A stretch of DNA of 64,000 bases from the NCBI GenBank assembly GCA_041649475.1, contig JBAZNA010000001.1, positions 750,594 to 814,593 on the forward strand, read 5' to 3'. Below are positions 794-35,370 of the stretch, in pieces. The DNA is from Patescibacteria group bacterium (lineage in GTDB: Bacteria > Patescibacteriota > Patescibacteriia > Magasanikbacterales > GWA2-37-8). A program made the translations under genes and the position numbers. The notes under the pieces are model-generated. The model searched no databases, had not been told where the DNA came from, and was given only the letters and a program-made list of their open reading frames with translations. The first letter of the stretch is position 1. Each line of letters opens with the position of its first letter.

Positions 794-1563
794 ACGCCCC
801 ATTTTGTAAAATATTTAAGCATGCTGGAAAAAAATTGCCATTGTTTCCAAAGCAAATTTTGCTTCTTAAAGCTTTGCCCGACATAATCAACACAGCTCAC
901 CACCGGTGTGTACATAACCTTAAGACCCATTTTTTTAACTTCCCGACAGGTATCAACGTCTTCAAACCAGAGAAAATACCTTGGATCAAACGCCCAGCCC
1001 AACTTTTCATAAACCTTACGACGCATCAGCATAAAAGACCCGCGCACCGAATCAACCTCCTGTTCCTTGTCCGGATCAAAATTTTTATAGGTATAATGAT
1101 TCAAAACACTTGGAAATATATGCGGAATTTTTAAAAAAATAGCCAGCTGATTCCAAAAATTGGGAAAACGTCTGGGTTTGGCTTTCTCATTAAATTTTCC
1201 ATTTTCATCAACCAATTTACAACTGGCCAAACCCACATCAACATGTTTCCGCATCCAATCAACCATAACATCCAAACTGCCGGCTTGGACGCGCATGTCC
1301 GGGTTTAAAAAAAGCAAAAACTCGCCTTGGGCGAGCTTCGCGGCCTGATTATTGGGATACCCAAAACCGGTGTTTTTACCCTCTTTTATCAGCTTAACTT
1401 CAGAAAAATTTTGTTCAATAATCTCAACCGTTTTGTCAGCAGACCCGTTATCGGCAATAATCTGTTCAAAACTAACATTTTGACAGCCGCTTTTTACGGA
1501 TTTGATTTGTTCAGTTATCAAATCAGCCGCATTCCAAGTAACGGTAATAACACTTAAATCCAT
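790..1563 (-). CDS. Family 2 glycosyltransferase (GT-A fold)
   Basis: MDLSVITVTWNAADLITEQIKSV...IIADNGSADKTVEII is a GT2 N-terminal signature. Its stop overlaps the start of the downstream GT2 as ATGA. Confidence 0.75.
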   Translation of the reverse strand: MDLSVITVTWNAADLITEQIKSVKSGCQNVSFEQIIADNGSADKTVEIIEQNFSEVKLIKEGKNTGFGYPNNQAAKLAQGEFLLFLNPDMRVQAGSLDVMVDWMRKHVDVGLASCKLVDENGKFNEKAKPRRFPNFWNQLAIFLKIPHIFPSVLNHYTYKNFDPDKEQEVDSVRGSFMLMRRKVYEKLGWAFDPRYFLWFEDVDTCREVKKMGLKVMYTPVVSCVDYVGQSFKKQNLLWKQWQFFSSMLKYFTKWGV

Positions 1564-1564
1564 A

Positions 1565-2641: not shown

Positions 2642-2662
2642 ACAATTTGTTTAATTCTTATT

Positions 2663-3499
2663 TTATTGTTTTGCCAACTTATATTTCTCCAAAACATCCC
2701 TCACCGCTTCCTTCACCGGCCGCATCCTAATCCCTAATTTTTCTAAATTTTCTGAAGATAAAATCGTGTTAGACCTGGTTTTTTTGGCCAGCCCTTCGTT
2801 CACCAATTCCTGGGCCGTGATCCAAACATTAGTATGGTTCGGGTCAACAATTTCATTATACATCTCTATAATTTCTTTATGTTTTATTGAACCCGGATTG
2901 GTGACATGAAAAATTCCGGTTGCCCGCTTTTCTAAAAGTTCGCCAAAAACTTTAACCATATCATCAACTATGGTCACGCTGTTTTCTACATCTATCACGC
3001 GCGGGAAAGAAGCCAATTTGGTAATCAAGTTGGCTGGCGAGGGCTGGCTGTCTATCGGCATCCTGATTCGGGCAATACCGACATTAGGCAGGGTGGACAA
3101 AACCAAATCGGCCGCGTATTTACTGCGGGTATAAACTGCCGACGGATTGGCCATATCGCTTTCTTTCCAGCCCTTAGGATCGGAAGAATAGCCATAAAAA
3201 ACACAGCCGGTGCCCATATGTAACAAGTATACGCCCTTTTTCTGACAGGCCTCGGCAATCATAATCGGCAAAGTAGTGTTACCGGCTATGGTTTCAAGCT
3301 GATGGTCTTCACACCAGTCAACATTGGGCTTACCAACTATTCCGGCCGCGTTTAAAACCGAATCCGGTTTATGTTCGTCTAATAAATCCTCAACATCTTT
3401 AACTGAATTTAAAATCTTGCCTGACAAAATCGCCTCCGGCCAGGCCTGCGCGCATCTTGTACCAAGAAAACCATTACCGATAATCAAAACTTTATTCAT
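2663..3499 (-). CDS. NAD(P)-dependent sugar-nucleotide reductase/epimerase, RmlD-like (possible dTDP-4-dehydrorhamnose reductase)
   Basis: MNKVLIIGNGFLG Rossmann N-terminus and a YxxxK catalytic motif (AVYTRSKYAA). Its 278 aa length matches RmlD, and it sits next to rmlB. Confidence 0.5.
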   Translation of the reverse strand: MNKVLIIGNGFLGTRCAQAWPEAILSGKILNSVKDVEDLLDEHKPDSVLNAAGIVGKPNVDWCEDHQLETIAGNTTLPIMIAEACQKKGVYLLHMGTGCVFYGYSSDPKGWKESDMANPSAVYTRSKYAADLVLSTLPNVGIARIRMPIDSQPSPANLITKLASFPRVIDVENSVTIVDDMVKVFGELLEKRATGIFHVTNPGSIKHKEIIEMYNEIVDPNHTNVWITAQELVNEGLAKKTRSNTILSSENLEKLGIRMRPVKEAVRDVLEKYKLAKQ

Positions 3500-19911: not shown

Positions 19912-21111
19912 TTATAATTTGTATTTAAAGTAGAGAACATCGCCGGTAGTGCTAAAATTTGTTCTATTCTTCCAGAAGTAATCCCAGGTGCACGAAATGT
20001 TATTTTTACACAGGTCCATAATGGTGAAAAGGGTCGCGTAACGCAGGGTGCTTTGGATGATGTATGGCGTAATCATAGCCAAAACGACCATGCCCACGGC
20101 AATATGTCTGTACCAGCGGCCTTTCATATATACCCTATAAATGCCATAGCAGGCAATAGGGACAAAAAACCAGGCGGAAATAAATACTGTCCGGGCGACA
20201 AACAGCGACCACAGGTAATAAGACATGCTTGAAGGTATAACCGCCAATAGATAAATTTTTATGTTTCTATCAAGCGTCCGCCAATTTTTAATCAGAAAGT
20301 ATAAACCAACTATAATAAACAGCCACAAAATGTTATAGGTGCTGGCATGGACGCCAAACCATTTGAACAGGGTGTAATTGTCCGTCGTGTATGTTTGCCA
20401 GTTGAATGTAAACCATTGCAGGGAGCTGTAATGAATGGCGCTCCCCCGAAACGAGTTAACAATGATTGTCGCCAGCGGAAAAACAGAAAATCTGATAAAA
20501 TTAAACGCTCTTTCTTTCCAGGAAACTTTATCAAGCAGAAATAAAATACCGACAAACAGCGCGCCCATGCAACCGCTTTCCTTTGTCAGTACCCCAAAAG
20601 CCACCGCGATGCCGCCTAAAAAAAGCCAATTCTTATTTTTAGTATTTTCCCACCATCTCCAGCCGGCGTATATGGTGAGTAAAAACCAGAAATAACCGCC
20701 AATATCCTGAACCTGGGTCAAACCGTAACGTACCATGGCGTATCCACTTATCACAATCAGGGCAGAAGTGAAGCCGATGAAATTACTTTTAAATACCCGT
20801 CTGATCAGACCATAAGTTAAAAACACGAGGCCGTAATAAAAAATGATATTGGTCATGATTAAACCCTGTTCCGCGGTCAAAAATCTGAAAATGGTCGCGC
20901 CCATTACCGCATAAAAGGGATTAAGATACCGGGCCGGGACGAAAAAGAAAAACGACATGTGTTCACCTCGAAAAAATCTGATGAATTCAATAAAACTGTA
21001 AGTGTCGTTGTTTGGGTGAAAACCATACAACGCGGCGAATAGGGCCAAGTTCAGAGAAGCCAACAAAAAGAGCCAAATAAGTATTTTATGTTTCTCAATT
21101 TTTTCTAACAT
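19912..21111 (-). CDS. Polytopic membrane protein, possible GT-C-type glycosyltransferase or polymerase
   Basis: 399 aa with about 11 TM segments, aromatic-rich, no soluble domain. Confidence 0.35.
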   Translation of the reverse strand: MLEKIEKHKILIWLFLLASLNLALFAALYGFHPNNDTYSFIEFIRFFRGEHMSFFFFVPARYLNPFYAVMGATIFRFLTAEQGLIMTNIIFYYGLVFLTYGLIRRVFKSNFIGFTSALIVISGYAMVRYGLTQVQDIGGYFWFLLTIYAGWRWWENTKNKNWLFLGGIAVAFGVLTKESGCMGALFVGILFLLDKVSWKERAFNFIRFSVFPLATIIVNSFRGSAIHYSSLQWFTFNWQTYTTDNYTLFKWFGVHASTYNILWLFIIVGLYFLIKNWRTLDRNIKIYLLAVIPSSMSYYLWSLFVARTVFISAWFFVPIACYGIYRVYMKGRWYRHIAVGMVVLAMITPYIIQSTLRYATLFTIMDLCKNNISCTWDYFWKNRTNFSTTGDVLYFKYKL

Positions 21112-21125: not shown

Positions 21126-21815
21126 TTATATTTTTATTCTATATTTTAATAATGTCCAAATTGCGACTAACTCATCACGCCAACAAATTTTCTTGCCTTC
21201 TGCCTTATGCCGGGGCCGGTAGGAAATAGGCACTTCCGAGATTTTTATTCCGCGCAGGGCCGTAAGCGCGGTCACTTCGGGGCAGAACTCAAAACGGCGG
21301 CAATGCAAATCTAAATTTTTTAGAAAATCGGTTTTAAACATTTTATAACAAGTCGGCTCGTCGGTTAATTTTTGTCCGTATAATAGGTTGGCTAAAATCG
21401 TGAGCAACCATCCACCAAAATAATACAACAGTCCTGAATATTGTGTATTTTCTTCTTTTAGGCGTCTTGAACCATAAAGAACCAACAACCCCTCGCTGAT
21501 CATTTTTTCCATCATCGGTTTAAAATCACTTGGATCATACTCCAAATCAGCATCTTGGATCACAACATAATCGCCGGTGGCTTCTTTTAATCCGCTTCGA
21601 ATCGCCGCCCCCTTTCCCTGGTTCTGGTCATGAAAAAGCACTCTGCCCCAGCCATTTGAACTCTTAAGAAATTCGCGCGTCCCGTCCACGGAGCAATCAT
21701 CAACAATAATTATTTCTTTTTCAACGCCGGCCAAATCCAAATCACTCAATTTTGTTAAAATCTCGGTGATGGTACTTTTTTCGTTATAAACCGGAACGAT
21801 TACTGAAAGCTTCAC
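21126..21815 (-). CDS. Family 2 glycosyltransferase (polyprenyl-phosphate sugar transferase-like) with a C-terminal TM
   Basis: MKLSVIVPVYNEKSTITEIL...IIIVDDCSVDGT. Confidence 0.7.
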   Translation of the reverse strand: MKLSVIVPVYNEKSTITEILTKLSDLDLAGVEKEIIIVDDCSVDGTREFLKSSNGWGRVLFHDQNQGKGAAIRSGLKEATGDYVVIQDADLEYDPSDFKPMMEKMISEGLLVLYGSRRLKEENTQYSGLLYYFGGWLLTILANLLYGQKLTDEPTCYKMFKTDFLKNLDLHCRRFEFCPEVTALTALRGIKISEVPISYRPRHKAEGKKICWRDELVAIWTLLKYRIKI

Positions 21816-21821: not shown

Positions 21822-21965
21822 TTAAAATATCGTGTAAATAAAGGGCGCGAGCGGCGAGGTCTGGGCAAAAACCAAAAGAACACCAAACAAAATCAAAATA
21901 ATTAAAATTGGCGCCAGCCACCAGGCCTTTCTGATTTTTAAAAAATTCCAGAGCTGCTTTAACAT
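21822..21965 (-). CDS. 47-aa conserved small membrane protein (DUF5989-like; a typical partner of O-carbamoyltransferase loci)
   Basis: Not in the ORF track because it is under 60 aa. Hand translation gives MLKQLWNFLKIRKAWWLAPILIILILFGVLLVFAQTSPLAPFIYTIF*. It has an amphipathic N-terminus, a single TM segment and a ...APFIYT(I/L)F C-terminus. Confidence 0.5.
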   Translation of the reverse strand: MLKQLWNFLKIRKAWWLAPILIILILFGVLLVFAQTSPLAPFIYTIF

Positions 21966-22009
21966 GTTGATCATAAAATTATTTACTAGCCCGAAGGGCG
22001 TTTAAAAGC

Positions 22010-23191
22010 TTATTTATAAAAAGAATCAAAAATAAATTTCGCTAATACATCGGATACCACATCGTGTCCACCTTGTGAAAAGTGCCCCCACCCATTTTTA
22101 TACATCTCCTTGCCGTCAGATACTTCTTTCTCCATTGTTTCCCGTAAATTTATCATTTTTATCGAAGGATCTAATCCGGCAATTAATCTGTCTTCAAATG
22201 CCTTTGGATTAAAATCAACATTTTTTAATCCGGGATACTGATCGAGGTATGAATTTAATACATTTTTATCAACCGTCATGCCTTGCGGAATAAACATGAG
22301 CGCGAACTTAACGCCATCTTTGTCCAGCTGTTTTTTTAAATTATCCAGAAGATCAATACTAAATTGTAAATACTTCGAACGCTGCTCATCCAACGGAGTA
22401 ATGTAATAATAATCATCATAAGGAATAACCAGTCCATTTTCACCCTTAGCCGGCGGACGATATAAACCGAATTTAACGGCAAAATCATACAATACCGGAC
22501 TGCCCCTTACTATCCGATCAAAAAACCTGATAATGGCTGACATTCTGTATATCCTATCCTTAACTGATACAAAGTTATTTATCTGTGTTGAGGCGTATTG
22601 AGGAAAAGTGTTCCATGATTCTTTTGAAGCCAACATCGCATCCTTGTATTTGTAGCTATAACTATTATCAGTAGCGTCATTTTGAAGATAAAAAGCTAAA
22701 ACCACGACATCGGGATGATATTTTTGGGCGTACTTTTCATAATATTTCATCTGGTCCACTGTTCCCGTACCGCCAATACCGAAGTTTAATACTTCAACTT
22801 TATTGTATGTTGAACTGGGATTTGTAAAAAGTAAATCTTGAAATTTTTTGCTTAATTGATATACAAAAGTTCTATTGTAATCGACCCCGGTCGCCTCAAC
22901 ATACGAATCTCCCAAAACCACGATTCGCAAGGTGCCGCTGGCCTTTTCTTCGCTAAAATCATCACCTAAAAATCCTAAACTATTAGATTTAACATGGAAA
23001 TATTTTAATTCTTCATTATCAAACAAGTTCCTGTCTAAATTTGGTTTCAAAACCGCCATGCCGTCTTTGTTTATTCTCCAAATTGAGACATAAGTTTGAG
23101 TTTCAAAGAGGTGGAGAATACATTCAATCGCGACCAAGGTCAGTAAAACCGAAATAATCAAAGTTAGCCACCTTTTTTTAGTTTCGCTCAT
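22010..23191 (-). CDS. Membrane-anchored SGNH/GDSL-like protein (possible polysaccharide O-acyl-transferase or esterase, AlgX/AlgJ-like)
   Basis: N-terminal TM helix, then RIVVLGDSYVEATG (GDS(x) block I) and a C-terminal GWGHFSQGGHD. Confidence 0.4.
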   Translation of the reverse strand: MSETKKRWLTLIISVLLTLVAIECILHLFETQTYVSIWRINKDGMAVLKPNLDRNLFDNEELKYFHVKSNSLGFLGDDFSEEKASGTLRIVVLGDSYVEATGVDYNRTFVYQLSKKFQDLLFTNPSSTYNKVEVLNFGIGGTGTVDQMKYYEKYAQKYHPDVVVLAFYLQNDATDNSYSYKYKDAMLASKESWNTFPQYASTQINNFVSVKDRIYRMSAIIRFFDRIVRGSPVLYDFAVKFGLYRPPAKGENGLVIPYDDYYYITPLDEQRSKYLQFSIDLLDNLKKQLDKDGVKFALMFIPQGMTVDKNVLNSYLDQYPGLKNVDFNPKAFEDRLIAGLDPSIKMINLRETMEKEVSDGKEMYKNGWGHFSQGGHDVVSDVLAKFIFDSFYK

Positions 23192-23244
23192 AAATTAAGT
23201 AAAAATATGCCTATATTGTAGCACTTAAAAACGCTTTCTGTCAA

Positions 23245-25032
23245 TTAATCAAGTTTAAATTTGCCCAAATAAGTTCTCATTTTTTCCTCATCCACCAGAT
23301 GCTGGTTGTCTTTCTTGGAAATCAGATAATTACCCAGAACCAGATAGTCCATGAAGGTGTTTAAAAACGTGCTCAACGCGTCTTTGGGCGACATCACTAT
23401 GGGCTCGCCGCGGACATTAAAGGAGGTATTGATAATAACCGGACAACCGGTTTTTTGGTAAAAGGCGTTAATTATATCGTAATAACGCGGATTCTGCGCT
23501 CTGCTGACCGACTGGATGCGGGCCGAATTATCAACATGAGTGATGGCCGGGATGTCCGTTCTCTTTACCTGTGCGACCAAAAGCATATAGGGCGTCGGGT
23601 ATTTTATGTCAAAACATTCGCTGTTTTTATCCTCAAGCACGGTCGGCGCGAACGGCCGGAAACTCTCCCTGAATTTGATTTTCAAATTCACCTTCTGCCA
23701 ATTTTCCTTGTTGCGGGCGTCAGCGATGATTGAGCGATTGCCCAAAGCGCGCGGGCCGTATTCCATGCGCCCACCAAAAAGCCCGATGACATTACTGCCG
23801 GTAATTAAATCAGAAATCTTATCAATCAGCTCGCTGTCATTTAAATATTGATACTTAATTTTTTCGTTATCAAGGAAATTTTTAATTTCTTCATTACTGT
23901 ATTCCGGACCCAAGTAAGCGTTGACCATTACCTTCTGGTTCGACGGCGGGAACTGGTGACTCAAAACCTGGTAATAAACATACAGAGCACTGCCGACCGC
24001 GCCACCGGCGTCGCCTGAAGCCGGCTGGATGTATAAATTCTCAAACCAGCCCTTCTCCAAGATTTTGCCATTGGCCACGCAGTTTAAAGCCACCCCGCCG
24101 GCCATGCACAAATTTTTTGACGGGTGCACTTGCCGGGCATGGTCAACAATTTTTAAAACGATTTCATTGGTGATCTTCTGCAAAGCCGCGGCAATATCTT
24201 TTTCGCGCTGGGTCGGGGCCGTGCCGAATTTTACAGCCGGACCGCCGAAAAGCTGGTCAAAATTCTTATTGGTCATGCGTAAACCAGCTTCATAGGAAAA
24301 ATACTTCATGTTCAATTTAAAACTGCCGTCGTCTTTAACTGCAACCAATTCTTTAAATTTATCGTAATATTTTTCCGGATCTCCGTATGGAGCCAAGCCC
24401 ATTACTTTATATTCGGCGCTATTAACTTTAAAACCTAAATAGTAGGTCAAAGCCGAATAAAGAAGGCCTAAAGAATCCGGGAACTCAATAGTTTCTGTCA
24501 GTGTCAGTTTATTGCCTTGGCCATAGCCGATGGTGGTGGTATCATACTCACCCACTCCATCCATCGTAACCACCACCGCGTCCTCAAAATCAGAACAATA
24601 ATAGGCGCTGGCCGCGTGCGCGTAGTGATGCTCGGTAAACAAAATTTCGCCCTTGTACCCGCCCAGGGCTTTTCTGATCCGGCTTTCGACCCAAAGTTTA
24701 CTTTTGACAAACACCATTATTGCTTTGAGAAAGGAAATAAACCCTCGCGGCCAGGTGTTGATGTAGGTTTTGAGCAGGCGTTCAAATTTTAAAAGCGGCT
24801 TCTCATAAAAAACCACGTAATCGAGACGATTGACTTCTACGCCCCCGGCCTTAAGACAATAGTCCACCGCGTTCTTCGGCAAATCAGAATCATGTTTTAC
24901 GCGCGTAAAACGCTCTTCGTGGGCCGCCGCGATTACTACCCCATTTTTGATCAAAGCCGCGGCTGAATCATGATAGTCAAACGAAAGCCCCAGAATGTAA
25001 ATATCCTGCTCGTTTATGTTAAATTCATTCAT
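23245..25032 (-). CDS. NodU/CmcH-family O-carbamoyltransferase
   Basis: ILGLSFDYHDSAAALIKNGVVIAAAHEERFTRVKHDSDLP is a NodU/CmcH N-terminal signature; the 595 aa length fits. Confidence 0.8.
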   Translation of the reverse strand: MNEFNINEQDIYILGLSFDYHDSAAALIKNGVVIAAAHEERFTRVKHDSDLPKNAVDYCLKAGGVEVNRLDYVVFYEKPLLKFERLLKTYINTWPRGFISFLKAIMVFVKSKLWVESRIRKALGGYKGEILFTEHHYAHAASAYYCSDFEDAVVVTMDGVGEYDTTTIGYGQGNKLTLTETIEFPDSLGLLYSALTYYLGFKVNSAEYKVMGLAPYGDPEKYYDKFKELVAVKDDGSFKLNMKYFSYEAGLRMTNKNFDQLFGGPAVKFGTAPTQREKDIAAALQKITNEIVLKIVDHARQVHPSKNLCMAGGVALNCVANGKILEKGWFENLYIQPASGDAGGAVGSALYVYYQVLSHQFPPSNQKVMVNAYLGPEYSNEEIKNFLDNEKIKYQYLNDSELIDKISDLITGSNVIGLFGGRMEYGPRALGNRSIIADARNKENWQKVNLKIKFRESFRPFAPTVLEDKNSECFDIKYPTPYMLLVAQVKRTDIPAITHVDNSARIQSVSRAQNPRYYDIINAFYQKTGCPVIINTSFNVRGEPIVMSPKDALSTFLNTFMDYLVLGNYLISKKDNQHLVDEEKMRTYLGKFKLD

Positions 25033-25033
25033 A

Positions 25034-25267
25034 CTAAAATTGGAATTTTAAATTCTCCAGATCGGCCGGTCGGTTTTCTTTGATTTTCCAATACGATAAT
25101 GGCTGATTTTTATGGCCTTTGAGTAACCGGACAAGGCCAAAAGGCAAAGCGTATAAACCGATGATTATAAAATAAAAAACCGTCAAAATAATAAAACCGC
25201 TAATCGTCCCCAAAACATGGCTAAATTTCATCCAATACTTATACAGTGTTTTAAAAAAATTTTTCAT
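25034..25267 (-). CDS. Small membrane protein (possible SxtJ-like carbamoyltransferase-associated protein)
   Basis: 77 aa with 1-2 TM segments; its stop lies 1 nt from the carbamoyltransferase start. The assignment is tentative. Confidence 0.35.
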   Translation of the reverse strand: MKNFFKTLYKYWMKFSHVLGTISGFIILTVFYFIIIGLYALPFGLVRLLKGHKNQPLSYWKIKENRPADLENLKFQF

Positions 25268-25278
25268 AATCGTTAAAA

Positions 25279-26223
25279 TTATACTTTTTTAAGCAGCCAC
25301 AACATAATGGCCTTTTGAATATGCATTCTATTTTCGGCTTGGTCAAAAATTATTGAGTTTTTATGGTCTATAGCATCACGGCTGATTTCATAGCCGATGT
25401 GGCAGGGCATACAATGCATAATTCTGGCCTGCGGCGCGTATTTGTCAATTATTTCGGCATTGAGCTGATACGGCTTGAGCACACGCAGACGGCGATCATA
25501 TTCCGCCTGGAATTCCGGCAGAACTTTACCGTCTTTAAAAAATTCCATATCCATCCAAGTATCAGTATGGACAAAATCGGCTCCGGCCATGGCCTCGGCC
25601 AAATTTAAATTTTTAGAAACTTTTCCGGTCGCCTCGGCCATCGCGTTAAGTTCGCCATCCACACTGGACGCGTTAACCTCCGGAGCAGCCAGGCACACCT
25701 CTATCCCCAACTGCGCGCACGCCAGTTTCAAAGTATTGGAAACATTATTTTCAATACCGAGCCAGACGATTTTTTTGATTTTATCCAATCCGCCGGCGTG
25801 CTCCATCATCGTTAATATATCGCCCAAGGCCTGGCAAGGATGATATTTTTCACTGCAAGCGTCTATTACCGGAATCTGATTAAATGAAGCGGCGGTTTGC
25901 ACATCCACGGCTTTCAAGGCCCGAAACATCAACATTTGCCCAAATCTCATTACCGCCCTGATCTCGTCTTTAAAATCGGTTAAAGAAAACTGTGAAGTGC
26001 GCGAATCCAGATAAATCGCGTGCCCGCCCAGCTCGGTTGTGCCGGCTTCAAAAGACAGACGCGTGCGGGTTGATGATTTCTGAAACAGCATTATCAAAGT
26101 TTTGTTCTCAAAATATTTTGGAAAATTATTTTCGGTTCGGTCTTTTTTGAGTTTGGCCGCCAAATCCAAAATTTCCCAAATTTCTTCCTTGGTAAAATCT
26201 TTTAAAGAAATCAAATGACGCAT
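25279..26223 (-). CDS. Ornithine/aspartate carbamoyltransferase-family enzyme (OTCase-like)
   Basis: LIMLFQKSSTRTRLSFEAGTTELGGHAIYL contains the STRTR carbamoyl-phosphate motif, plus ...YHPCQALGD... and HCMPCH (the HCLP-type motif). Confidence 0.8.
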   Translation of the reverse strand: MRHLISLKDFTKEEIWEILDLAAKLKKDRTENNFPKYFENKTLIMLFQKSSTRTRLSFEAGTTELGGHAIYLDSRTSQFSLTDFKDEIRAVMRFGQMLMFRALKAVDVQTAASFNQIPVIDACSEKYHPCQALGDILTMMEHAGGLDKIKKIVWLGIENNVSNTLKLACAQLGIEVCLAAPEVNASSVDGELNAMAEATGKVSKNLNLAEAMAGADFVHTDTWMDMEFFKDGKVLPEFQAEYDRRLRVLKPYQLNAEIIDKYAPQARIMHCMPCHIGYEISRDAIDHKNSIIFDQAENRMHIQKAIMLWLLKKV

Positions 26224-26233: not shown

Positions 26234-27082
26234 CTACGCCGCCCCACCAGCTGCTTTTTTCTTTAAGCTCCTGTCTATCTGCCATATTTGGTAGTAAAGA
26301 GAAAAATAACAGACAAAATTCTGCAGTGCCAGACTCCACCCGTTTACGCCGTGCTTCCACAAGCCATTTTTGAGCTGGGCTAAAGTAGTTTTTGGGGGAT
26401 AAGTTATTATATAATACAGCGGGTGTTTTCTGATTTTCATAGCGTGTTTTATCCATTTGTCCGGAGTAGTATTATAGCATTCGTAAGTAAAAAGCTCTGG
26501 GAAAAATCCTTTGGCCAAAGCTGGGATCCAATAATTGGCTTTTCTCATGGTCTCCTTCCAAGAGATATTATTATAATTTGGCCGATGATGTAAAATCAAA
26601 TTAGCTTTTTTAAGTCCTCCATCCACCTCACCCACCTCTTGAACCACGCCGACATAACGATAATTCTTTCTCCGGAAAAAAAGCGGCTTCTGTATGCCGG
26701 CAAAGGCGATGGCCCGTTTACCGTCCCAAAATTCCCAGTCAAAGATATATCCGTTGACGTTATCGTCGGACCCTAAGAGCGCGCGGATTTTGCCGTGATC
26801 GGCAACATCAAAATATTCATCGGCATCAAAACGCAACAACCATTCGCAGGTGGCCTGGGCAAAGGCAAAGGCCAGATGTCCTTCAACCACGCACTGATGC
26901 TCGCGCACGAAAATTTTGTCAGTATATTGTTTAGCAATTTCCAAAGTCCGGTCGGTGCAGGGGCCGTCGTGAATTATTATAATTTCATCAGCCAGACCCT
27001 TAATGCTGCTGAGACACCTTTCAATAATTTTTTCTTCGTTATAAATCACTAAACACGCGGAGATTGTTACTGGTTTGCTCAT
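26234..27082 (-). CDS. Family 2 glycosyltransferase
   Basis: ISACLVIYNEEKIIERCLSSI...IIIIHDGPCTDRT. Confidence 0.65.
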   Translation of the reverse strand: MSKPVTISACLVIYNEEKIIERCLSSIKGLADEIIIIHDGPCTDRTLEIAKQYTDKIFVREHQCVVEGHLAFAFAQATCEWLLRFDADEYFDVADHGKIRALLGSDDNVNGYIFDWEFWDGKRAIAFAGIQKPLFFRRKNYRYVGVVQEVGEVDGGLKKANLILHHRPNYNNISWKETMRKANYWIPALAKGFFPELFTYECYNTTPDKWIKHAMKIRKHPLYYIITYPPKTTLAQLKNGLWKHGVNGWSLALQNFVCYFSLYYQIWQIDRSLKKKAAGGAA

Positions 27083-27819
27083 ATTGAAGCTGGGATATTA
27101 AACTGTTGTATTGCTTTTTGCGCGTCATTTAAAAAGTTAACCACGGTCTCTTTGGTACGAGCGGACAAAAGCGACTTGGCGATAACATCCGGCGGAATGG
27201 TGAGAATATGAGCGCCGCTCTTAGCCCATAATTCCACATTCTCCGGAGTACGAACCGCACCGACGATAATTTCAATGTTTTTATAATTATGAAAATCCAG
27301 CCACTGCCTCACTTCTTTTAATACCTTTTGGGCTTGTTCCACCCCATGCTCCTCGGAAATCCGGCCGCCAAAAATGCTGATATAATGAGTTTTTTTAACT
27401 GCTGCTTTGGCCAAACCGGCATTTATGGCTTTAGTGGCCATAATGGCCTGATTAAAAGTCATCATCGCGGTCACATTGACCGATACGCCCTCGCTGACAA
27501 GCTGATAAATAACCGGCAAAAGAGAGACGCCGTTTTGATCAGTAACTGTTATTTTTACCGTAATATTATCCGCCCAGGTATTATATTTTCTGGCCTGATT
27601 TAAAATTTCATTGGGATTATCAGTAGTCACTTCCACGCTTAACGAAAGCGGCGCGATTAATCCGGCTATTTCAACTGCTCGAGCTTTTATACCTTCTTCT
27701 CCTCCCGTAACTCCCGCCTTTAAACAAATACTCGGATTAGTAGTAACTCCGTCACAGAGCCCCCAACTAATATACTTTTCAATCTCCTTGACGTCCGCGC
27801 TGTCAATAAACACCTTCAT
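27079..27819 (-). CDS. Transaldolase / fructose-6-phosphate aldolase family (short TalC/FSA type)
   Basis: MKVFIDSADVKEIEKYISWGLCDGVTTNPS is the hallmark transaldolase/FSA N-terminus; 246 aa. Confidence 0.75.
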   Translation of the reverse strand: MKVFIDSADVKEIEKYISWGLCDGVTTNPSICLKAGVTGGEEGIKARAVEIAGLIAPLSLSVEVTTDNPNEILNQARKYNTWADNITVKITVTDQNGVSLLPVIYQLVSEGVSVNVTAMMTFNQAIMATKAINAGLAKAAVKKTHYISIFGGRISEEHGVEQAQKVLKEVRQWLDFHNYKNIEIIVGAVRTPENVELWAKSGAHILTIPPDVIAKSLLSARTKETVVNFLNDAQKAIQQFNIPASI

Positions 27820-27864
27820 AAGTTAAATCATCCTTAATAATTAAATTGATTGTCATAAAAAGCT

Positions 27865-28593
27865 CTAGATTAATCCATTTTCACGCACATACTCTTCCAC
27901 TTCTTTGTATTTCTCCAAATCGTCCATGCATTTCGTATATTCACCGCATTCATAGCTGTAAAATTTCAAACCACGGTTAACAACATCCGGCATCAAATTT
28001 TTCCCGAGTTCATAGTAAGTATTAGCCGGAACAAATTTTAAAATTTCTTTTCTTAATATAAACACGCCCTTCATCCGATAAGCATTCATGTATTTTTCTG
28101 TGTGGGGTTTGGGATGAATCGCTTTGTAACAGCCATCAGGACCGACTTCAGCCACATCCGCGTCCTGGTAGTTCTCGGTTTTCTGCATTTTCTGCATACC
28201 GATAATATCCGGGTGTTTGGCAAACTCCGCTTCCATTTTGGAGTAATCCATCAAACTGAACATGTCTCCGTAAATGACAAAAAAAGTGTCATCCAGCTGT
28301 TTCTCAAAATCTTTTACCCCACCGGCGGTTCCCAAGGGTTCCTTTTCTATAAAATAATTTATTTTTACTCCCCATTTGGCTCCGTCGCCAAAATAATTCC
28401 GGACCACATCAGGAAGATAAAAAAGGTTGATAAAAAATTCGGTCACGCCATGTTTTTTAAACTGTTCAATATTCCATTCCAAAAGCGGCTTGCCGGAAAA
28501 AGGAATCATTGCTTTGGGCATAGTATCAGTGAGCGGCCTCATGCGAGTCCCCAAACCAGCACACAGAATAACGGCTTGTTTTATTTTTGACAT
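27865..28593 (-). CDS. Sugar-1-phosphate nucleotidyltransferase, HddC-like (D-glycero-alpha-D-manno-heptose-1-P guanylyltransferase)
   Basis: AVILCAGLGTRMRPLTDTMPKAMIPFSGKPLLEW is the NTP-transferase motif. It sits among the gmhA, hddA and gmhB homologues. Confidence 0.6.
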   Translation of the reverse strand: MSKIKQAVILCAGLGTRMRPLTDTMPKAMIPFSGKPLLEWNIEQFKKHGVTEFFINLFYLPDVVRNYFGDGAKWGVKINYFIEKEPLGTAGGVKDFEKQLDDTFFVIYGDMFSLMDYSKMEAEFAKHPDIIGMQKMQKTENYQDADVAEVGPDGCYKAIHPKPHTEKYMNAYRMKGVFILRKEILKFVPANTYYELGKNLMPDVVNRGLKFYSYECGEYTKCMDDLEKYKEVEEYVRENGLI

Positions 28594-29150
28594 ATTTTAA
28601 CGGCTTCCACCAAATTTTTTACGGTAAAATCCGGCTTCACATGTTGGTATTTCTGATCCAAACGCGCGTGACCCGGGCCAGTTTTCACCAAAATCGTTTT
28701 GAGGCCGGCTTTTTTGCCCGAAACTACATCTATAAGCGCGTCACCGATCATAAAACTCTTCTTCGGGTTTATTTTTAAATCCTTTAATCCTTTAAGGATC
28801 ATCCCCGGTTCCGGCTTACGGCAACGGCAGCGCAAACGATACTCTGGCAAATTCGCTTCCGGGTGGTGTGGACAATAATATATCCCGTCAATACGCGCTC
28901 CTTTGCCGTGCAAACGCCTGATTAGCACGCCATGGATTTCGTCAACTTCTTTTGGTCCGATGATACCGCGCGCAATCACCGGCTGATTAGTCACTACAAT
29001 TACGAAAAATCCTAGTTTGTTCAGTTTGCTAATTGCCCGCGCCGTACCAGGAAGAAGGCGCAGGTCTTTAACTTTATGCATTAAGTCAACCTGTCTGATA
29101 ATCGTTCCGTCCCGATCTAAAAATACCGCTTTATGGTCTCTTTTTTCCAT
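28581..29150 (-). CDS. gmhB: D-glycero-D-manno-heptose 1,7-bisphosphate phosphatase (HAD-IIIA)
   Basis: VFLDRDGTI (DxDxT) and the Zn-binding CPHHP...C.C.KP motif typical of GmhB. Confidence 0.75.
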   Translation of the reverse strand: MEKRDHKAVFLDRDGTIIRQVDLMHKVKDLRLLPGTARAISKLNKLGFFVIVVTNQPVIARGIIGPKEVDEIHGVLIRRLHGKGARIDGIYYCPHHPEANLPEYRLRCRCRKPEPGMILKGLKDLKINPKKSFMIGDALIDVVSGKKAGLKTILVKTGPGHARLDQKYQHVKPDFTVKNLVEAVKICQK

Positions 29151-29162
29151 AAAAGTACCGCC

Positions 29163-30089
29163 TTACGCATTGATAACATTCTTTTTAATGTAATCAATCT
29201 GGATTTTAAGGCCTTCTTCAATCGTGGTTTTCGGATTCCAGCCCAAACTCTTGAGCTTGGAACAGTCACCTAAATTTACCTGGGCCTCGCCCTCCAGATT
29301 ATCTTTATAGATCGGATCTAGATTTACCCCGGTTATATCCCTGATCATTTTATAAATTTCATTAATGGAGTAATTCACGCCACAACCGATATTAAAAACT
29401 TCGTTGTTGGCTCGGTCATCTTTCATCAAGAGCAGGTGTACGTCATTGACATCGTCAACATAAACAAAGTCGCGCCTCTTTTCACCATCTCCATAAATAA
29501 TTGGGTTCTCGCCGCGTAGAAGTTTGATTATGAGGGCGGACATAACCGGCGGAATCGTTCTCCTATAATCCTGTCTGGGGCCGTAGACATTAAAATAACG
29601 TACGGCCACGGTCTTTAAATTGCGAAACTTCTGGAAGCCCTGGGCATAAATATTGGTGGTCATCTTGCTAAGCGCGTAAAAGCTGTGCGGGTGCACGTCG
29701 GATTCCGGAGTTGGGTAAATTTCTGAACCCTCATACAGAGCCGAGGTTTCGGCATAAATGATTTTTTTGATTCCCGCCCTGGCACTAGCTTCAAATACAT
29801 TGACAGTGCCGGTGCTGTTATTATCACTGGCGTCTACCGGATCCTGTTGGCACTCGCTGACACTACTTTTAGCAGCCAGATGAAACACGTATTCAACGTC
29901 TTTAAATAACGGATAAATGTCTTTTGACCTTATATCCAATTTATGAAAATCAACACCTTCCGGAACCTGGGTTACAACCCCGGCGGAAAGGTTGTCTATA
30001 CCGATTACCTCATATCCCTCCTCAAGCAAACGAACTGCTAAGTTGCTTCCTATAAAACCGGCAATGCCTGTGATGAGAACTTTAGCCAT
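29163..30089 (-). CDS. NAD-dependent epimerase/dehydratase (candidate GDP-heptose modifying SDR)
   Basis: MAKVLITGIAGFIGSNLAVRLLEEGYEV and SFYALSKMTTNIY (YxxxK). Confidence 0.7.
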   Translation of the reverse strand: MAKVLITGIAGFIGSNLAVRLLEEGYEVIGIDNLSAGVVTQVPEGVDFHKLDIRSKDIYPLFKDVEYVFHLAAKSSVSECQQDPVDASDNNSTGTVNVFEASARAGIKKIIYAETSALYEGSEIYPTPESDVHPHSFYALSKMTTNIYAQGFQKFRNLKTVAVRYFNVYGPRQDYRRTIPPVMSALIIKLLRGENPIIYGDGEKRRDFVYVDDVNDVHLLLMKDDRANNEVFNIGCGVNYSINEIYKMIRDITGVNLDPIYKDNLEGEAQVNLGDCSKLKSLGWNPKTTIEEGLKIQIDYIKKNVINA

Positions 30090-30121
30090 ATTTGTATAAA
30101 ATTATATAAAAAGGTGCAGAT

Positions 30122-30151
30122 ATTATATACTATAGCACCCACACAACGCAA
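30122..30151 (-). promoter_or_regulatory. Candidate internal promoter (TTGCGT-18-TATAAT on the minus strand) in the 77-bp gap upstream of the SDR gene
   Basis: On the minus strand: TTGCGT (complement of 30146-30151), an 18-nt spacer, then TATAAT (complement of 30122-30127). This is the largest intergenic gap in the middle of the array. Confidence 0.25.
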
Positions 30152-30166
30152 GTTTAAAAATCGAGT

Positions 30167-30781
30167 CTAAACCTTAGAAGATTGCTGTTTCCGGCTCACC
30201 AAATGATCAAAATAATCCTGAAAATAAGTTGTCATCAAATGAAGAATAACCCCATGCGCGCCTTCTACGACTCCGTATTTTCCTTTTTCGGTCCGGACCA
30301 TAATCTTTGCGTCTGCCAATTCATTGAGTTTGCCGCCATCAAAACCCGATAACCCGATTACCGGCACATGGCGGCTCTTGGCCAATTCAACCGCTTTGAT
30401 AATATTAGCTGAATTTCCTGAACTGCTGATAGCTATAATGCAATCACCCTCCCTTAAATAGTTTTGCAAGGGACCGGAGAAGACCGTATCAAAGCCAACG
30501 TCATTGGCCCAAGCCGACATCTCTTCTTCGGTGGTGGGTAAACGTATGGCTTGAAACCTTTTGGAATGTAAATCCAAATTATGACTGAAAACAGTTTTAT
30601 TAAAATCACTCACCCAGTGAGTAGCCAAGGCCAGGGATCCCCCGTTGCCAAAAATATATATGCGTCCATCCCGTTCATAAACCGATTGCACTATATTGAT
30701 GGCCTTGGCAATTTCTTCCGAGGGCAAGGCCTTGAGGGCGTAATCAGTTTCGGAAATATATTTAGAGATGTAATCTTTCAT
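30167..30781 (-). CDS. gmhA: Phosphoheptose isomerase (SIS domain)
   Basis: IYIFGNGGSLALATHWVSDF...IAISSSGNSANIIKAVELAK...GLSGFDGGKL closely matches GmhA. Confidence 0.8.
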   Translation of the reverse strand: MKDYISKYISETDYALKALPSEEIAKAINIVQSVYERDGRIYIFGNGGSLALATHWVSDFNKTVFSHNLDLHSKRFQAIRLPTTEEEMSAWANDVGFDTVFSGPLQNYLREGDCIIAISSSGNSANIIKAVELAKSRHVPVIGLSGFDGGKLNELADAKIMVRTEKGKYGVVEGAHGVILHLMTTYFQDYFDHLVSRKQQSSKV

Positions 30782-30786
30782 AAAGA

Positions 30787-31794
30787 TTAAGATACATTAT
30801 CGCTGAACAGAATATCCGTTCCGGATTGAGTAAAATTAAACGGGATAGCCTGCGCTTCCGATAGATTATTTTCCGCGGCCAACTTTTTTAAACTGGCTTT
30901 AATCTGTTCGTGTTTATCGAGCGGTGCCAAAAACAACAGACATCCTCCCCCGCCCGCGCCCAGAATTTTTCCGCCCCAGGCGCCGTTTTTGATCCCGGTT
31001 TCATACATTACGTCAATTAACGAATTTGAAACCGCCGAAGCTAAACTCCTTTTGCGCAACCAGCCCTCGTGGAGCATCGCCGCCATGCCTTCCAGATCCC
31101 CGGCCATTAGTTTGTCACGAAAATCATAAACCGAATCGGACATTTTTTTGTATGTTTCAAAATTGCTCTCAATTTTTGTTTTCTGTTCTCCCAAAACAGA
31201 GGCAGCACTTCTGGTAATGCCGGTAAAAAATAAAATGAGATGATCTTCAAATTTCGCTCTCTTCTTATAATCCAATAAAATTGGCTCAATTGTTACCGTC
31301 TCATCGGAGTTGAATTGAAATATATTAAATCCGCCGAACGAGGCCGCGTATTGATCTTGTTTGCCGATCGGTTCTTTTAATAACTCGATTTCCAAACGGC
31401 AAGCGGCTTCGGCGGCTTCAATGCGGCTCATACTCTTGCCCAACAAATAGTTTAACCCTTTAACCAACGCGACAGAAAATCCGGACGAAGAACCCAAACC
31501 GGTTTTTGCGGGAATATCCGCGGAACTGGTAATTTCCAATCCGTGTTTAATGCCTAAATCCAACAGGATTCCCCGCGCCCGGTCATGTTTCAGTTCACTG
31601 GGATCAGCTACAATTTCAGTCGTATTATATTTCATTATAAATTTATTCAAAAGTCCCGTCGGATTTATTGACAGGTAAATAAATTTATTAATTGTTGTGG
31701 AAATGACCCTGCCCGGATATTTATGATAAAAATCCGGCAGATCCGTTCCTCCTCCCACAAAGCTAATACGTAGTGGCGCTCTGACTATAATCAT
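30787..31794 (-). CDS. hddA: GHMP-family sugar kinase, HddA-like D-glycero-D-manno-heptose-7-phosphate kinase
   Basis: MIIVRAPLRISFVGGGTDLPDFY (HddA N-terminus) and the GHMP motif PAKTGLGSSSGFSVA. Confidence 0.7.
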   Translation of the reverse strand: MIIVRAPLRISFVGGGTDLPDFYHKYPGRVISTTINKFIYLSINPTGLLNKFIMKYNTTEIVADPSELKHDRARGILLDLGIKHGLEITSSADIPAKTGLGSSSGFSVALVKGLNYLLGKSMSRIEAAEAACRLEIELLKEPIGKQDQYAASFGGFNIFQFNSDETVTIEPILLDYKKRAKFEDHLILFFTGITRSAASVLGEQKTKIESNFETYKKMSDSVYDFRDKLMAGDLEGMAAMLHEGWLRKRSLASAVSNSLIDVMYETGIKNGAWGGKILGAGGGGCLLFLAPLDKHEQIKASLKKLAAENNLSEAQAIPFNFTQSGTDILFSDNVS

Positions 31795-33165: not shown

Positions 33166-35370
33166 TTACTTCTTTGCCCTGCAAACAGCCACCATGAAGC
33201 GTGATTTTTTAATATTATTGTCATCTTGATAAAAGACAATATCACTGGGCTCTAAAACCGGCTTTATCCGGTTTATGATCTTTAGTTTGATAGTATTGCT
33301 TGTTTTATAACTGATGATGTTTAGATGGCGCAGGCCGAGCAAAACAGGATTTAATATCTTCCAGAACCAGCGATCATTATATACAGGCGTGCTTTGGCCA
33401 TAAAATTTTTCAATAACAAAAAATTCGCTAAGCGCGCTTTTAAATTCATCAACTGCCATCTCAAAAACATGATAAGGGTTGTTGGGTTTTTGGCCGGCTG
33501 CCGTACCCGGTGAATAAATTTCCCTATTTGGAGTTGAAATGTAAACTAGACCGTCATTTCTTACGACTCTTTTTATCTCCGACAAAAACTTTCGCCAATC
33601 CTGAACATGTTCAAATACCTCAAAAGCCGCCGCGACATCAAAAAAATTATCTGCAAAGGGAATACCTGTGCCGGACCCGCAGGAAAATTCTACATTGGGA
33701 GCGGACCAATTTTCTTTAGCATAACTGATAGCTTCAGCGGAAACATCAACACCGTATATTTTTTTGAATTTTTTGGATAATTCATGACTGCCATGTCCGG
33801 AGCCGCAGCCAATATCCAAAACAGTGCTCTCCGGGTTGCCGGAAACCAAATTATAGCGCGCCAAATGTTCAACTAAATTATTCCGGGATAAATTGCTTTT
33901 GGAATCCAATCTCTCTCCGCCGAATCTATTTCCTTCCGCTTTATTTTGTTTTGCAATATTATCTTTGGGTTTCACCCGGCAATACTTCAAAAGAAATTCC
34001 AGTATAAATTTCTCAACGCCAAAATATTTGAAATAACGCTTCCGCCATCTGATGTCGCATAGTTTTTCAAACGGTTTGACTAACCAACGCCTCATTCCGG
34101 GAAAATTGATGTCTGTTTTGGAGCCCGGCTTTTGGTGGAAATGAAAACCGGCAATATGATATACGCTTTGCATTTCGTTTGACCCGGAATTGCTGACCGT
34201 AAAATTTTCCCACTCGCTCATTCTTTCAGGCACTCTCATCCCGTGGGCTACTGCCACCGAATGCAATGTGATTCCCGGAAAAGGCGTGAAATTATATATG
34301 GGTATATTGCAATTTCCTTTGTGAATCTCATACAATTGGTCGGCAAAAGCGAAGGTTTCATTCCTCTCTGCAAGCGTTTCCGTGGGAAAACCAATAATCA
34401 AATAATATCTCGGCCTGATGTTTGAATTTTCAGATAAACATTTGGCCGCATGCAGTATGTCTTCTTTGGTTTCTGCCTTATTGATGAACTTCATTAATCT
34501 TTCACTTCCGGTTTCCACTCCCATGGCAATATCGGTAACTCCCAGTTCTGATAATTTTCTGGCAAATTCAGGTCCGTTGACTTTAAAATTATCAGCTCGA
34601 AAAGAGGGATGCCATTTAATATTTCGCTCTTTTAAAATTTTACCGACTTCCAATATTCTTGATTCCCGGCCTAAGTAATCATCTCCGATTTGTATCCATT
34701 TTATTTGCATGTGCGACAAAAGCACGTCCAGCCACTGCGCCCAAAGCTGCAAATCTAACATTCTGTATTTTTTATCCTTATCAGTGCTGTTAACGCAAAA
34801 ACCGCAACTATACGGACACCCTCTTGATGAGGGAAACATTATGTCACTCGTTTGGTTGGCGAGCTTAAATAATCTTAGAGTTTTATCTGTGATCGGGCAA
34901 ACAAAATCAACCGCATCCAGTTTACCTGCCGGTATATATTTTACATCCCGGCCCACGATGCCTTTGGGAATAATATTTCTATCCTGAAAAAAAGCTAAAA
35001 AACTCGGCAGGGTTATTTCACCTTCCCCCACGGCAACATAATCTATAAAATCTTCTTTTATGCACTGCTCCGGCATAAGAGAAGCATGGACTCCGCCAAA
35101 AATGGTGGTTTTATTATTTTCCTTCGCCAATTTTAAAATCTCCGCCGCGTACTTCAATTGTATACCGGTAAAACTTGAGACCCCGACAACATCAGACCAT
35201 TTAATCAACTCAAGAAGTTTTTCCTTTGAATCCCAGCGCTCATCCCAATATTCCACTTCATATCCCGCCTTTTCGGCCGCCGCGCCCGTATAAATAATAC
35301 TTAGAGGACTATTTTTTTGCGGGGATGACTCCGTAGGGGTTGGCTGACATAATAAAACCTTCGGCTTCAT
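33166..35370 (-). CDS. B12-binding radical-SAM enzyme fused to a C-terminal class I SAM methyltransferase domain
   Basis: N-terminal cobalamin-binding Rossmann segment; CxxxCxxC as SSRGCPYSCGFCVNS; C-terminal VLDIGCGSGHGSHEL...IYGVDVS (motif I/II). Confidence 0.75.
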   Translation of the reverse strand: MKPKVLLCQPTPTESSPQKNSPLSIIYTGAAAEKAGYEVEYWDERWDSKEKLLELIKWSDVVGVSSFTGIQLKYAAEILKLAKENNKTTIFGGVHASLMPEQCIKEDFIDYVAVGEGEITLPSFLAFFQDRNIIPKGIVGRDVKYIPAGKLDAVDFVCPITDKTLRLFKLANQTSDIMFPSSRGCPYSCGFCVNSTDKDKKYRMLDLQLWAQWLDVLLSHMQIKWIQIGDDYLGRESRILEVGKILKERNIKWHPSFRADNFKVNGPEFARKLSELGVTDIAMGVETGSERLMKFINKAETKEDILHAAKCLSENSNIRPRYYLIIGFPTETLAERNETFAFADQLYEIHKGNCNIPIYNFTPFPGITLHSVAVAHGMRVPERMSEWENFTVSNSGSNEMQSVYHIAGFHFHQKPGSKTDINFPGMRRWLVKPFEKLCDIRWRKRYFKYFGVEKFILEFLLKYCRVKPKDNIAKQNKAEGNRFGGERLDSKSNLSRNNLVEHLARYNLVSGNPESTVLDIGCGSGHGSHELSKKFKKIYGVDVSAEAISYAKENWSAPNVEFSCGSGTGIPFADNFFDVAAAFEVFEHVQDWRKFLSEIKRVVRNDGLVYISTPNREIYSPGTAAGQKPNNPYHVFEMAVDEFKSALSEFFVIEKFYGQSTPVYNDRWFWKILNPVLLGLRHLNIISYKTSNTIKLKIINRIKPVLEPSDIVFYQDDNNIKKSRFMVAVCRAKK

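Follow-up and report, generated by a model that had tools for sequence, protein, structure and literature searches.

In the saxitoxin biosynthesis cluster, sxtI (1839 bp, a carbamoyltransferase), sxtJ (405 bp), sxtK (165 bp) and sxtL (1281 bp) are consecutive genes (PMC2679770, PMC2684587), and sxtL is annotated as a GDSL lipase (PMC2684587). A block of the same kind lies in the DNA analysed here, a 64,000-nucleotide stretch (the window) from the metagenome-assembled genome of a Patescibacteria group bacterium (contig JBAZNA010000001.1, positions 750,594 to 814,593; all coordinates below are those of the window unless a locus is named). All four parts of an sxtIJKL-type cassette are present: a carbamoyltransferase of ~600 residues, an SxtJ-family membrane protein, a peptide of ~50 residues and a GDSL/SGNH protein. 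The block differs from its saxitoxin counterpart in gene order, in sitting within a glycan locus, in its acceptor, presumably a sugar rather than a toxin precursor, and in an added gene for a protein resembling ornithine transcarbamylase (OTC or OTCase). We refer to this OTC-like protein (25279-26223) and its tight family as OTCL. The original prediction for this DNA had noticed the small membrane proteins and the SGNH-like protein, which are indeed there, without recognising the sxtIJKL-type cassette.

The characterised relatives of the carbamoyltransferase are NovN, GdmN and TobZ, which use carbamoyl phosphate (CP). They share its Kae1-like and YrdC-like domains (264-333 bits), and their mechanism, in which CP and ATP give carbamoyl-AMP and the carbamoyl group then passes to a hydroxyl, is presumed to be the same. 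They differ in acting on antibiotics, in actinomycetes that possess carbamoyl-phosphate synthetase (CPSase), and in having no SxtJ, SxtK or SxtL partners. OTCL also has described parallels. ArcB, which is paired with carbamate kinase in the arginine deiminase pathway, has the same fold and CP chemistry, and OTCL is often encoded directly downstream of the carbamate kinase gene arcC; that OTCL likewise phosphorolyses a ureido amino acid is our proposal. Unlike ArcB, OTCL lacks the DxxxSMG loop, has no arcA or arcD seen nearby, is mostly linked to biosynthetic users of CP (aspartate transcarbamylase, ATCase, and O-carbamoyltransferase) rather than to ATP production, and belongs to a clade of its own, seen so far only in bacteria of the Candidate Phyla Radiation (CPR) and DPANN archaea. 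Putrescine transcarbamylase (PTC or PTCase) of the agmatine deiminase pathway is a catabolic, unknotted enzyme of the OTC branch and is structurally as close to OTCL as OTC is (TM 0.85), but its YGLY 230-loop, its Gln in place of the OTC Lys and its C-terminal helix are all absent from OTCL. Finally, in Pyrococcus an enzyme other than CPSase feeds ATCase, and the P. furiosus OTC is the closest solved sequence relative of OTCL. There, however, carbamate kinase makes CP and OTC consumes it, whereas OTCL is proposed as a source and most of its loci have no carbamate kinase.

The five genes of the window all lie on the minus strand, with the open reading frames where the original prediction had placed them:

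25279..26223, minus strand: OTCL, 314 aa (Pfam OTCace_N, E 1e-40, and OTCace, E 6.5e-38)
25034..25267, minus strand: SxtJ-like small membrane protein, 77 aa, hydrophobic (Pfam PF19588, E 4e-4)
23245..25032, minus strand: NodU/CmcH-family (SxtI-like) O-carbamoyltransferase, 595 aa, called CmcH below (Carbam_trans_N, E 1e-91; Carbam_trans_C, E 2e-67)
22010..23191, minus strand: GDSL/SGNH-like protein, 393 aa, with an N-terminal hydrophobic helix (weak Lipase_GDSL match, E 2e-6)
21822..21974, minus strand: DUF5989 single-helix peptide, 50 aa (Pfam PF19451, E 8e-22)

The gap between OTCL and the SxtJ-like gene is 11 nt, and that between the SxtJ-like gene and the CmcH start codon is 1 nt, as had been reported. 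The small peptide had rightly been called DUF5989-like, but its reading frame encodes 50 residues; the earlier figure of 47 is obtained by counting from an internal Met at 21965.

We read these five genes as a carbamoylation cassette with its own CP supply, in which OTCL runs phosphorolytically, and we put the probability of this reading at about 0.55. The reaction direction, substrate, glycan acceptor and accessory roles that we infer are as follows. OTCL would convert a ureido compound and inorganic phosphate into an amine and CP; its likeliest substrate would be citrulline, which would yield ornithine, or else a close analogue among alpha-amino acids. The SxtI-like CmcH would take the CP and, by analogy with TobZ, use ATP to adenylate it to carbamoyl-AMP, from which the carbamoyl group would pass to a hydroxyl on a sugar or glycan synthesised by the locus around the cassette. 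Being driven by ATP, this step would draw the unfavourable phosphorolysis onward. The SxtJ-like protein, the DUF5989 peptide and the membrane-anchored SGNH protein are conserved accessory parts, which may tether the enzyme at the membrane or may edit or transfer the carbamoyl group on its outer face.

The transferase has the two domains of the NodU/CmcH O-carbamoyltransferases, Kae1-like at the N-terminus and YrdC-like at the C-terminus, and resembles characterised members of that family: against the PDB it scores 333 bits with NovN, 321 bits with GdmN and 264-267 bits with TobZ. The homology to NovN and GdmN is full-length, and the best-scoring TobZ stretch covers the C-terminal half only. 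With 142 against a cutoff of 1000 in the NodU equivalog model, it is not a NodU equivalog. A TsaD or HypF identity was rejected, the matches to those proteins being marginal next to the strong ones to NovN, GdmN and TobZ; by Pfam and PDB scores, the NodU/CmcH assignment made originally therefore holds.

The 77-aa protein scores 21.4 bits with SxtJ PF19588, below the cutoff of 24.4, and its counterpart in one of the compared loci, L071, scores 31 bits, above it (L-numbers denote compared loci, P-numbers single proteins). Homologues of the 77-aa protein found by tblastn (25-40% identity) adjoin CmcH in L049 and in eight metagenome loci. The SGNH protein occupies the position that SxtL has in the saxitoxin block; pairwise BLAST of this protein against the L071 and L069 proteins was not significant, and Pfam profiles found GDSL in both. 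DUF5989 is likened to SxtK by size and position only, and the searchable library held nothing relevant on DUF5989.

To place the cassette more broadly, metagenome contigs were scanned with an alignment of four CPR CmcH proteins, giving 80 loci (CmcH 48-56% identical, GC 26-70%). DUF5989 adjoins CmcH in 55 of these unrelated loci, an SGNH homologue is detectable in 13 and an SxtJ-like protein in 8. The core of the cassette, CmcH with DUF5989, is widespread in bacteria and already known in outline; for its function outside toxin synthesis there is no description in the searchable literature. OTCL was present in none of the 80, where a single locus carried an unrelated OTC/ATC at 32% identity. 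OTCL beside the cassette is seen only in CPR genomes.

Linkage of OTCL to the cassette is recurrent in those genomes. Among 83 OTCL loci (the window and 82 CPR/DPANN records, a few of which are duplicate copies of one contig), the CmcH cassette lies within three genes of OTCL in four: the window, L049, L069 (Uhrbacteria) and L071 (WWE3). Pfam and tblastn together recovered all five parts in the latter three, in differing orders. The order is CmcH, DUF5989, SxtJ (31 bits), GDSL and OTCL in L071; OTCL, CmcH, a weak SxtJ match, a weak GDSL match and DUF5989 in L069; and DUF5989, an SxtJ-like protein, a 918-aa fusion of CmcH, a helix and GDSL, and OTCL in L049. The four cassette-linked OTCLs are not mutual closest relatives. 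The nearest to the window copy are pyrimidine-operon copies (L007 and L039, 75% identity), as is also true of the L069 copy (75%), and the nearest to the L071 copy is a carbamate-kinase-linked one from L065 (76%). Since non-sister OTCLs have their nearest kin in other contexts, linkage to the cassette arose at least three times, with the family signature unchanged.

These data bear on the idea that the adjacency to CmcH is fortuitous, OTCL having simply ended up in a large glycan locus with no functional link to the transferase. The rarity of the pairing (4 of 83 OTCL loci), the 80 metagenome CmcH cassettes with no adjacent OTCL and a Nealsonbacteria OTCL that lies inside a glycan cluster with no CmcH all speak for it. 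It nevertheless appears very improbable to us: the pairing, within three genes, occurs in four CPR lineages whose gene orders differ and whose OTCLs are not sisters; if each gene is present once among ~1000, chance adjacency would be expected in far fewer than one case in 83; and the gaps in the window are 11 and 1 nt. The Nealsonbacteria gene (L028:10001-10948, in a metagenome-assembled genome, MAG) is on the opposite strand to its glycan cluster, which encodes epimerases, GT2, PMT-like and GT4 proteins and an AsnB-like amidotransferase and shares partial homology with the window cluster.

The 918-aa fusion in L049 (5201-7957) joins CmcH through a hydrophobic helix to a GDSL/SGNH domain at the CmcH C-terminus. 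As a Rosetta-stone link, it associates CmcH with the SxtL-like protein. Its layout implies that the transferase domain is cytoplasmic and the SGNH domain faces outward, and suggests that the two act in physical association at the membrane.

OTCL has the unknotted fold of OTC and PTC, with Foldseek TM scores of 0.85-0.87 to structures of both (AF2 model, pLDDT 92.5), and carries OTCace_N and OTCace on that fold as OTCases do. It keeps FQKSSTRTR, HPCQ, HCMPCH, ENR, the Asn-Asn pair and the 240's-loop Asp, as well as the Lys of FxKxSxRT, partner of the ornithine alpha-carboxylate. Throughout the 83 family members the CP-binding and catalytic motifs (STRTR, HPxQ, the C-terminal Arg and the Lys) are invariant or nearly so. 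The OTCase-family assignment and the intact STRTR motif of the original prediction are both borne out; unmentioned there was the replacement of the DxxxSMG motif of the 240's loop. OTCL has DTWMDMEFF at this position, followed in alignments with PDB sequences by an insertion of ~10 residues that is modelled as a small beta-hairpin (AF2). The family consensus is DTWx(D/N)MEFF, of which D, W, M, E and F are invariant in the 83 members. OTCL further has GIENNV where OTCases have GDGNNV, and HCMPCH for HCLPAH, with the Cys kept and Leu changed to Met. Its 80's loop is unlike that of most OTCases, yet common to the nearest SMG-type ones.

Profile scores place OTCL at the edge of the OTCases: it passes the TIGR00658 equivalog narrowly, by ~4 bits (285.2 against 280.85), fails NF001986 (293.1 against 306) and lies far below the cutoffs of the remaining OTC models. 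Knotted identities (the acetylornithine and succinylornithine transcarbamylases AOTC and SOTC, and YgeW) were ruled out by signatures and by the low scores of their models. So was PTC, for which the signature is a (Y/W)(G/W)(V/L/I)x 230-loop, the absence of Lys two positions before STRT, and a ~20-residue C-terminal helix (PMC3282769): OTCL has the DME loop, the Lys and no extension past residue 314, and scores 232 against a cutoff of 500 in TIGR04384 (putrescine carbamoyltransferase).

The boundary of the family is sharp. When 1.84 billion 50%-identity representatives were searched exhaustively with HMMER, OTCL formed one full-length representative at 494 bits, and the next full-length matches scored at most 280 bits with at most 45% identity. 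Members are more than 50% identical to each other, and canonical SMG enzymes begin at ~45%. By sequence, OTCL is a tight, discrete clade with members in both CPR bacteria and DPANN archaea. Of 126 full-length representatives at 50% identity, 93 have an SMG-type loop and 14 a DME-type loop, the latter co-varying with G(I/V)xNNV for GDGNNV, H(C/D)MP for HCLP and an NFxL..DE(I/T)R 80's loop. DME-type transcarbamylases outside the CPR family include P0244, P0245, P0248, P0249, P0266, P0271, P0303, P0304 and P0350. Most of this wider clade has HDMP for HCLP, the CP motif of P0244 is degenerate (TTRTG), and all that carry a name are annotated as ornithine carbamoyltransferase.

Such a signature raises the possibility that OTCL has a new second substrate, either phosphorolysing some other host-derived ureido compound or N-carbamoylating a glycan amino sugar or amine while CmcH O-carbamoylates. 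The 240's loop with its hairpin, GIENNV and HCMPCH all differ from canonical OTCases, these specificity changes co-vary across the wider DME-type clade, and the separation from SMG-type OTCs is clean (494 against at most 280 bits). The same loops discriminate specificities among known transcarbamylases (PMC4581275), and further catabolic transcarbamylases have been anticipated (PMC6022934). Against a new substrate, the invariant Lys and Asp, which contact the alpha-carboxylate and alpha-amino groups, argue for an ornithine-like amino acid; their retention fits an alpha-amino-acid substrate. The PTCase signatures (PMC3282769) are also absent, and the N-carbamoylation version leaves unexplained both the pyrimidine-operon and carbamate-kinase contexts of the family and the near-identical signatures of cassette-linked and pyrimidine-linked OTCLs. 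We consider a new second substrate rather doubtful, if far from negligible.

The genomic neighbourhoods of the family bear on its role. A one-genome-per-species scan yielded 80 loci (OTCL 66-76% identical), and neighbouring open reading frames in the 83 loci were called, clustered and named by Pfam/NCBIfam. Hosts are Magasanikbacteria, Kerfeldbacteria, Uhrbacteria, Falkowbacteria, Nealsonbacteria, Roizmanbacteria, Pacebacteria, Peregrinibacteria and WWE3 bacteria, together with DPANN archaeal MAGs. In 42 of the 83 loci OTCL is an internal or terminal gene of a pyrimidine operon, ordered pyrB-pyrI-pyrC-OTCL-pyrD-pyrK-pyrE-pyrF. In seven of these 42 carA/carB lies upstream and in two carbamate kinase is present, which leaves 33 with neither in the locus; complete operons have neither in 22 of 29 cases. 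Carbamate kinase occurs in 13 further, non-pyrimidine loci, mostly directly upstream of OTCL, which brings it to the vicinity of OTCL in 15 of 83. The one in L018 is arcC (TIGR00746, 406 bits). Gene proximity to carbamate kinase is a context criterion for catabolic transcarbamylases (PMC6022934).

What these neighbours share is CP: ATCase and O-carbamoyltransferase consume it, and carbamate kinase interconverts it with ATP. This points to a CP-related role for OTCL. Given pyrimidine operons mostly devoid of local carAB, and the carbamate-kinase and cassette contexts, that role is probably CP production. Carbamate kinase proximity (PMC6022934), the ornithine-to-spermidine genes described below and the retained Lys and Asp together make phosphorolysis of citrulline or an analogue the likeliest reaction. 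Of the earlier proposal that OTCL is a dedicated CP source, the comparative context thus favours the CP-producing part; citrulline as the substrate, with the SMG loop replaced, and the direction of the reaction are putative.

The link to ornithine comes from L053 (9048-14291), where carbamate kinase and OTCL are followed by an Orn/DAP-type PLP decarboxylase, SpeE and a fusion of SAM-decarboxylase with SpeE. This complete ornithine-to-spermidine gene set fits ornithine as the OTCL product, and the string looks like a compact route from citrulline to ATP and spermidine in CPR. In L029 (2293-5603), carbamate kinase and OTCL are followed by the decarboxylase only, and the contig ends soon after. 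In L059 (1021-4171) and L065 (7816-10933), YgeW (a knotted transcarbamylase, ~600 bits), carbamate kinase and OTCL stand in a row, so that one carbamate kinase is flanked by two different transcarbamylases; a PaeA/CNNM-like exporter lies upstream in L065.

Could OTCL simply be an ordinary anabolic ArgF with a lineage-specific loop, consuming CP from CarAB or an anabolic carbamate kinase, its adjacencies reflecting co-regulated CP consumers? It passes TIGR00658, if narrowly (285.2 against 280.85), annotation pipelines call it OTC, the ornithine-binding Lys, Asn-Asn and Asp are retained, carAB is upstream in seven pyrimidine operons, and among PDB sequences it is most similar to the anabolic P. 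furiosus OTC. But argG and argH were seen in none of the 83 OTCL neighbourhoods, and in organisms without ArgG and ArgH any citrulline made would lead nowhere; the lyase encoded after OTCL in some loci is aspartase, not ArgH. In 33 of the 42 pyrimidine-linked loci there is neither carAB nor carbamate kinase, the carbamate kinase-OTCL pairs and ornithine-to-spermidine genes indicate ornithine as product, and the DxxxSMG motif is missing. We judge an ordinary ArgF unlikely. The aspartate ammonia-lyase follows OTCL in L001, L006 and L018, where the operon could supply both ATCase substrates. In L001 (7027-7956), and equivalently in L006, the pyrimidine operon contains a third transcarbamylase paralogue, encoded immediately before OTCL and after a SAM-decarboxylase-like gene. 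The L001 protein (309 aa) has SLRTR for STRTR, DEWWKNT for DxxxSMG, and HCLPAH, and falls below all curated cutoffs.

Several observations weigh against a phosphorolytic, CP-supplying OTCL in the window. The OTC equilibrium strongly favours citrulline synthesis. CP output by catabolic transcarbamylases needs coupling to carbamate kinase (PMC6022934), and none was seen within ~84 kb of the window OTCL (the window plus 10 kb on each side). The DxxxSMG loop, which separates OTCases from other transcarbamylases (Shi et al., PMC4581275), is absent from OTCL; with SMG loop, GDGNNV and HCLP all altered, citrulline and ornithine may not be the substrate. OTCL co-occurs with carAB in seven pyrimidine operons and with carbamate kinase in two, in which it is not the sole possible CP source and could consume CP. 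No informative neighbour accompanies OTCL in 24 of the 83 loci, many of them on short contigs. No obvious transporter of a ureido donor was seen near OTCL, and arginine and agmatine deiminase were absent from the 25 most frequent Pfam families among 103 proteins near carbamate kinase-OTCL pairs (61 further families were present beyond these 25). The description of the module as self-contained finds no support here, no source of a ureido substrate (such as arginine deiminase or a transporter) having been seen.

In the same ~84 kb, no other arginine, pyrimidine, carbamate kinase or CPSase genes were seen, in agreement with the earlier remark that no other arginine-biosynthesis genes are present. 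For this survey the large open reading frames of the window between 4.5 and 39 kb were scanned against Pfam/NCBIfam, and the 10-kb flanks were covered by precomputed Pfam matches. No window open reading frame clusters with the pyrimidine, carbamate kinase or carAB genes of the related loci. In a set of 5.8 billion proteins, the best 120 matches to a CPR CarB query, and likewise the best 120 to a CPR carbamate kinase profile, included none from the source genome; generic homologues filled both sets.

Where CarAB does occur, it has the look of an import. It lies upstream of pyrB in a few Magasanikbacteria (L039, L010, L044, L067, L076 and L081). The L039 CarB (140-3331) has two close CPR relatives and then, among the matches listed, Chlamydiota/Verrucomicrobia CarB at ~70% identity. 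CarAB in Magasanikbacteria is, to judge from these sequences, probably a sporadic and late lateral acquisition.

OTCL itself occurs in both domains. In L030, L050, L060 and L082, MAGs labelled Nanoarchaeota or Woesearchaeota, it is 74-80% identical to, and interleaved with, the CPR copies (coordinates ~10001-10945 in L030 and L050). Since aIF2-beta, archease and TruD are among the neighbours in these four loci, at least some of the contigs are truly archaeal. The whole OTCL family falls into one 50%-identity cluster; the carbamate kinases adjacent to OTCL are only 43-89% identical to each other. The likeness of the CPR and DPANN copies suggests cross-domain transfer among ultra-small symbionts, or an unusually strong constraint.

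CPR bacteria and DPANN archaea are believed to obtain most of their building blocks from hosts, and many keep a full pyrimidine operon with no evident CP source beside it. The contexts of OTCL offer a testable answer: carbamoyl groups would be salvaged from an imported ureido compound. A broader form of this proposal is that OTCL represents a new transcarbamylase specificity, common to CPR and DPANN by cross-domain transfer, that phosphorolyses a host-derived ureido compound (not necessarily citrulline) and is the main or only CP source feeding pyrimidines, ATP through carbamate kinase, and surface-glycan O-carbamoylation. We regard this as a tentative prospect, less probable than not by some way but worth serious consideration; if true, OTCL would be a metabolic point of host dependence in CPSase-poor symbionts. 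The cassette, for its part, suggests that CPR cells carbamoylate surface glycans by means of sxtIJKL-like genes, and, judged by the loop signature, thousands of proteins that databases name ornithine carbamoyltransferase have a substrate loop other than the OTCase type.

There are earlier descriptions of catabolic transcarbamylases, of NodU/CmcH enzymes and of the sxtIJKL block, and the searchable literature held nothing relevant on CP supply in CPR. Three things appear to be undescribed there: a CPR/DPANN transcarbamylase clade with a non-OTCase substrate loop, its systematic placement in pyrimidine operons with no CarAB in the locus, and its repeated co-option as the gene supplying a cassette for glycan carbamoylation.

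The cassette lies in a glycan/cell-envelope locus of more than 70 kb, with nearly all large open reading frames on the minus strand, in a genome of ~1 Mb. The locus holds many GT2 and GT4 glycosyltransferases, PMT-like transferases, methyltransferases, epimerases and UDP-sugar dehydrogenases, and also encodes a Wzx-type flippase and a Wzy_C protein. The genes nearest the cassette, named by Pfam or, where marked with "-like" below other than PMT and for the nucleotidyltransferase, by the best Pfam/NCBIfam match below equivalog cutoff, are as follows:

30787-31794, minus strand: HddA-like GHMP kinase
30167-30781, minus strand: GmhA-like isomerase
29163-30089, minus strand: epimerase
28581-29150, minus strand: GmhB-like phosphatase
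27865-28593, minus strand: sugar-phosphate nucleotidyltransferase
27079-27819, minus strand: transaldolase/FSA-like gene
26234-27082, minus strand: GT2 glycosyltransferase, upstream of OTCL
21126-21815, minus strand: GT2 glycosyltransferase, downstream of the cassette
19912-21111, minus strand: PMT-like membrane glycosyltransferase, downstream of the cassette

The genes from 26234 to 31794 probably share a transcription unit with the cassette. Among them, the GmhA-, HddA- and GmhB-like genes, the nucleotidyltransferase and the transaldolase/FSA-like gene probably form a heptose nucleotide-sugar pathway, as judged from these matches.

Promoter-like sites are ~3 standard deviations more frequent than in shuffled sequence (31 against 18.6, sd 4.1), and terminator-like sites are no more frequent than in shuffled sequence. 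The sole strong promoter-like site (23215-23244, minus strand) lies in the 53-nt gap between CmcH and the SGNH gene. It is near-consensus for the sigma-70 type, with TTGACA, 18 nt, TACAAT and an extended TG (11 of 12 matches), and may split the cassette into two transcription units.

Elsewhere in the window are a fusion of a B12-binding radical-SAM protein with a methyltransferase (33166-35370), an 863-aa epimerase-NeuB-cupin fusion (52434-55025), a Wzy_C/TPR protein (59006-61051) and a 914-aa LTD-domain protein (61136-63880). The 10 kb past each end contain, by precomputed Pfam matches, further glycan genes, a two-component system and type-IV-secretion-like genes, the last just outside the high-coordinate end of the window.

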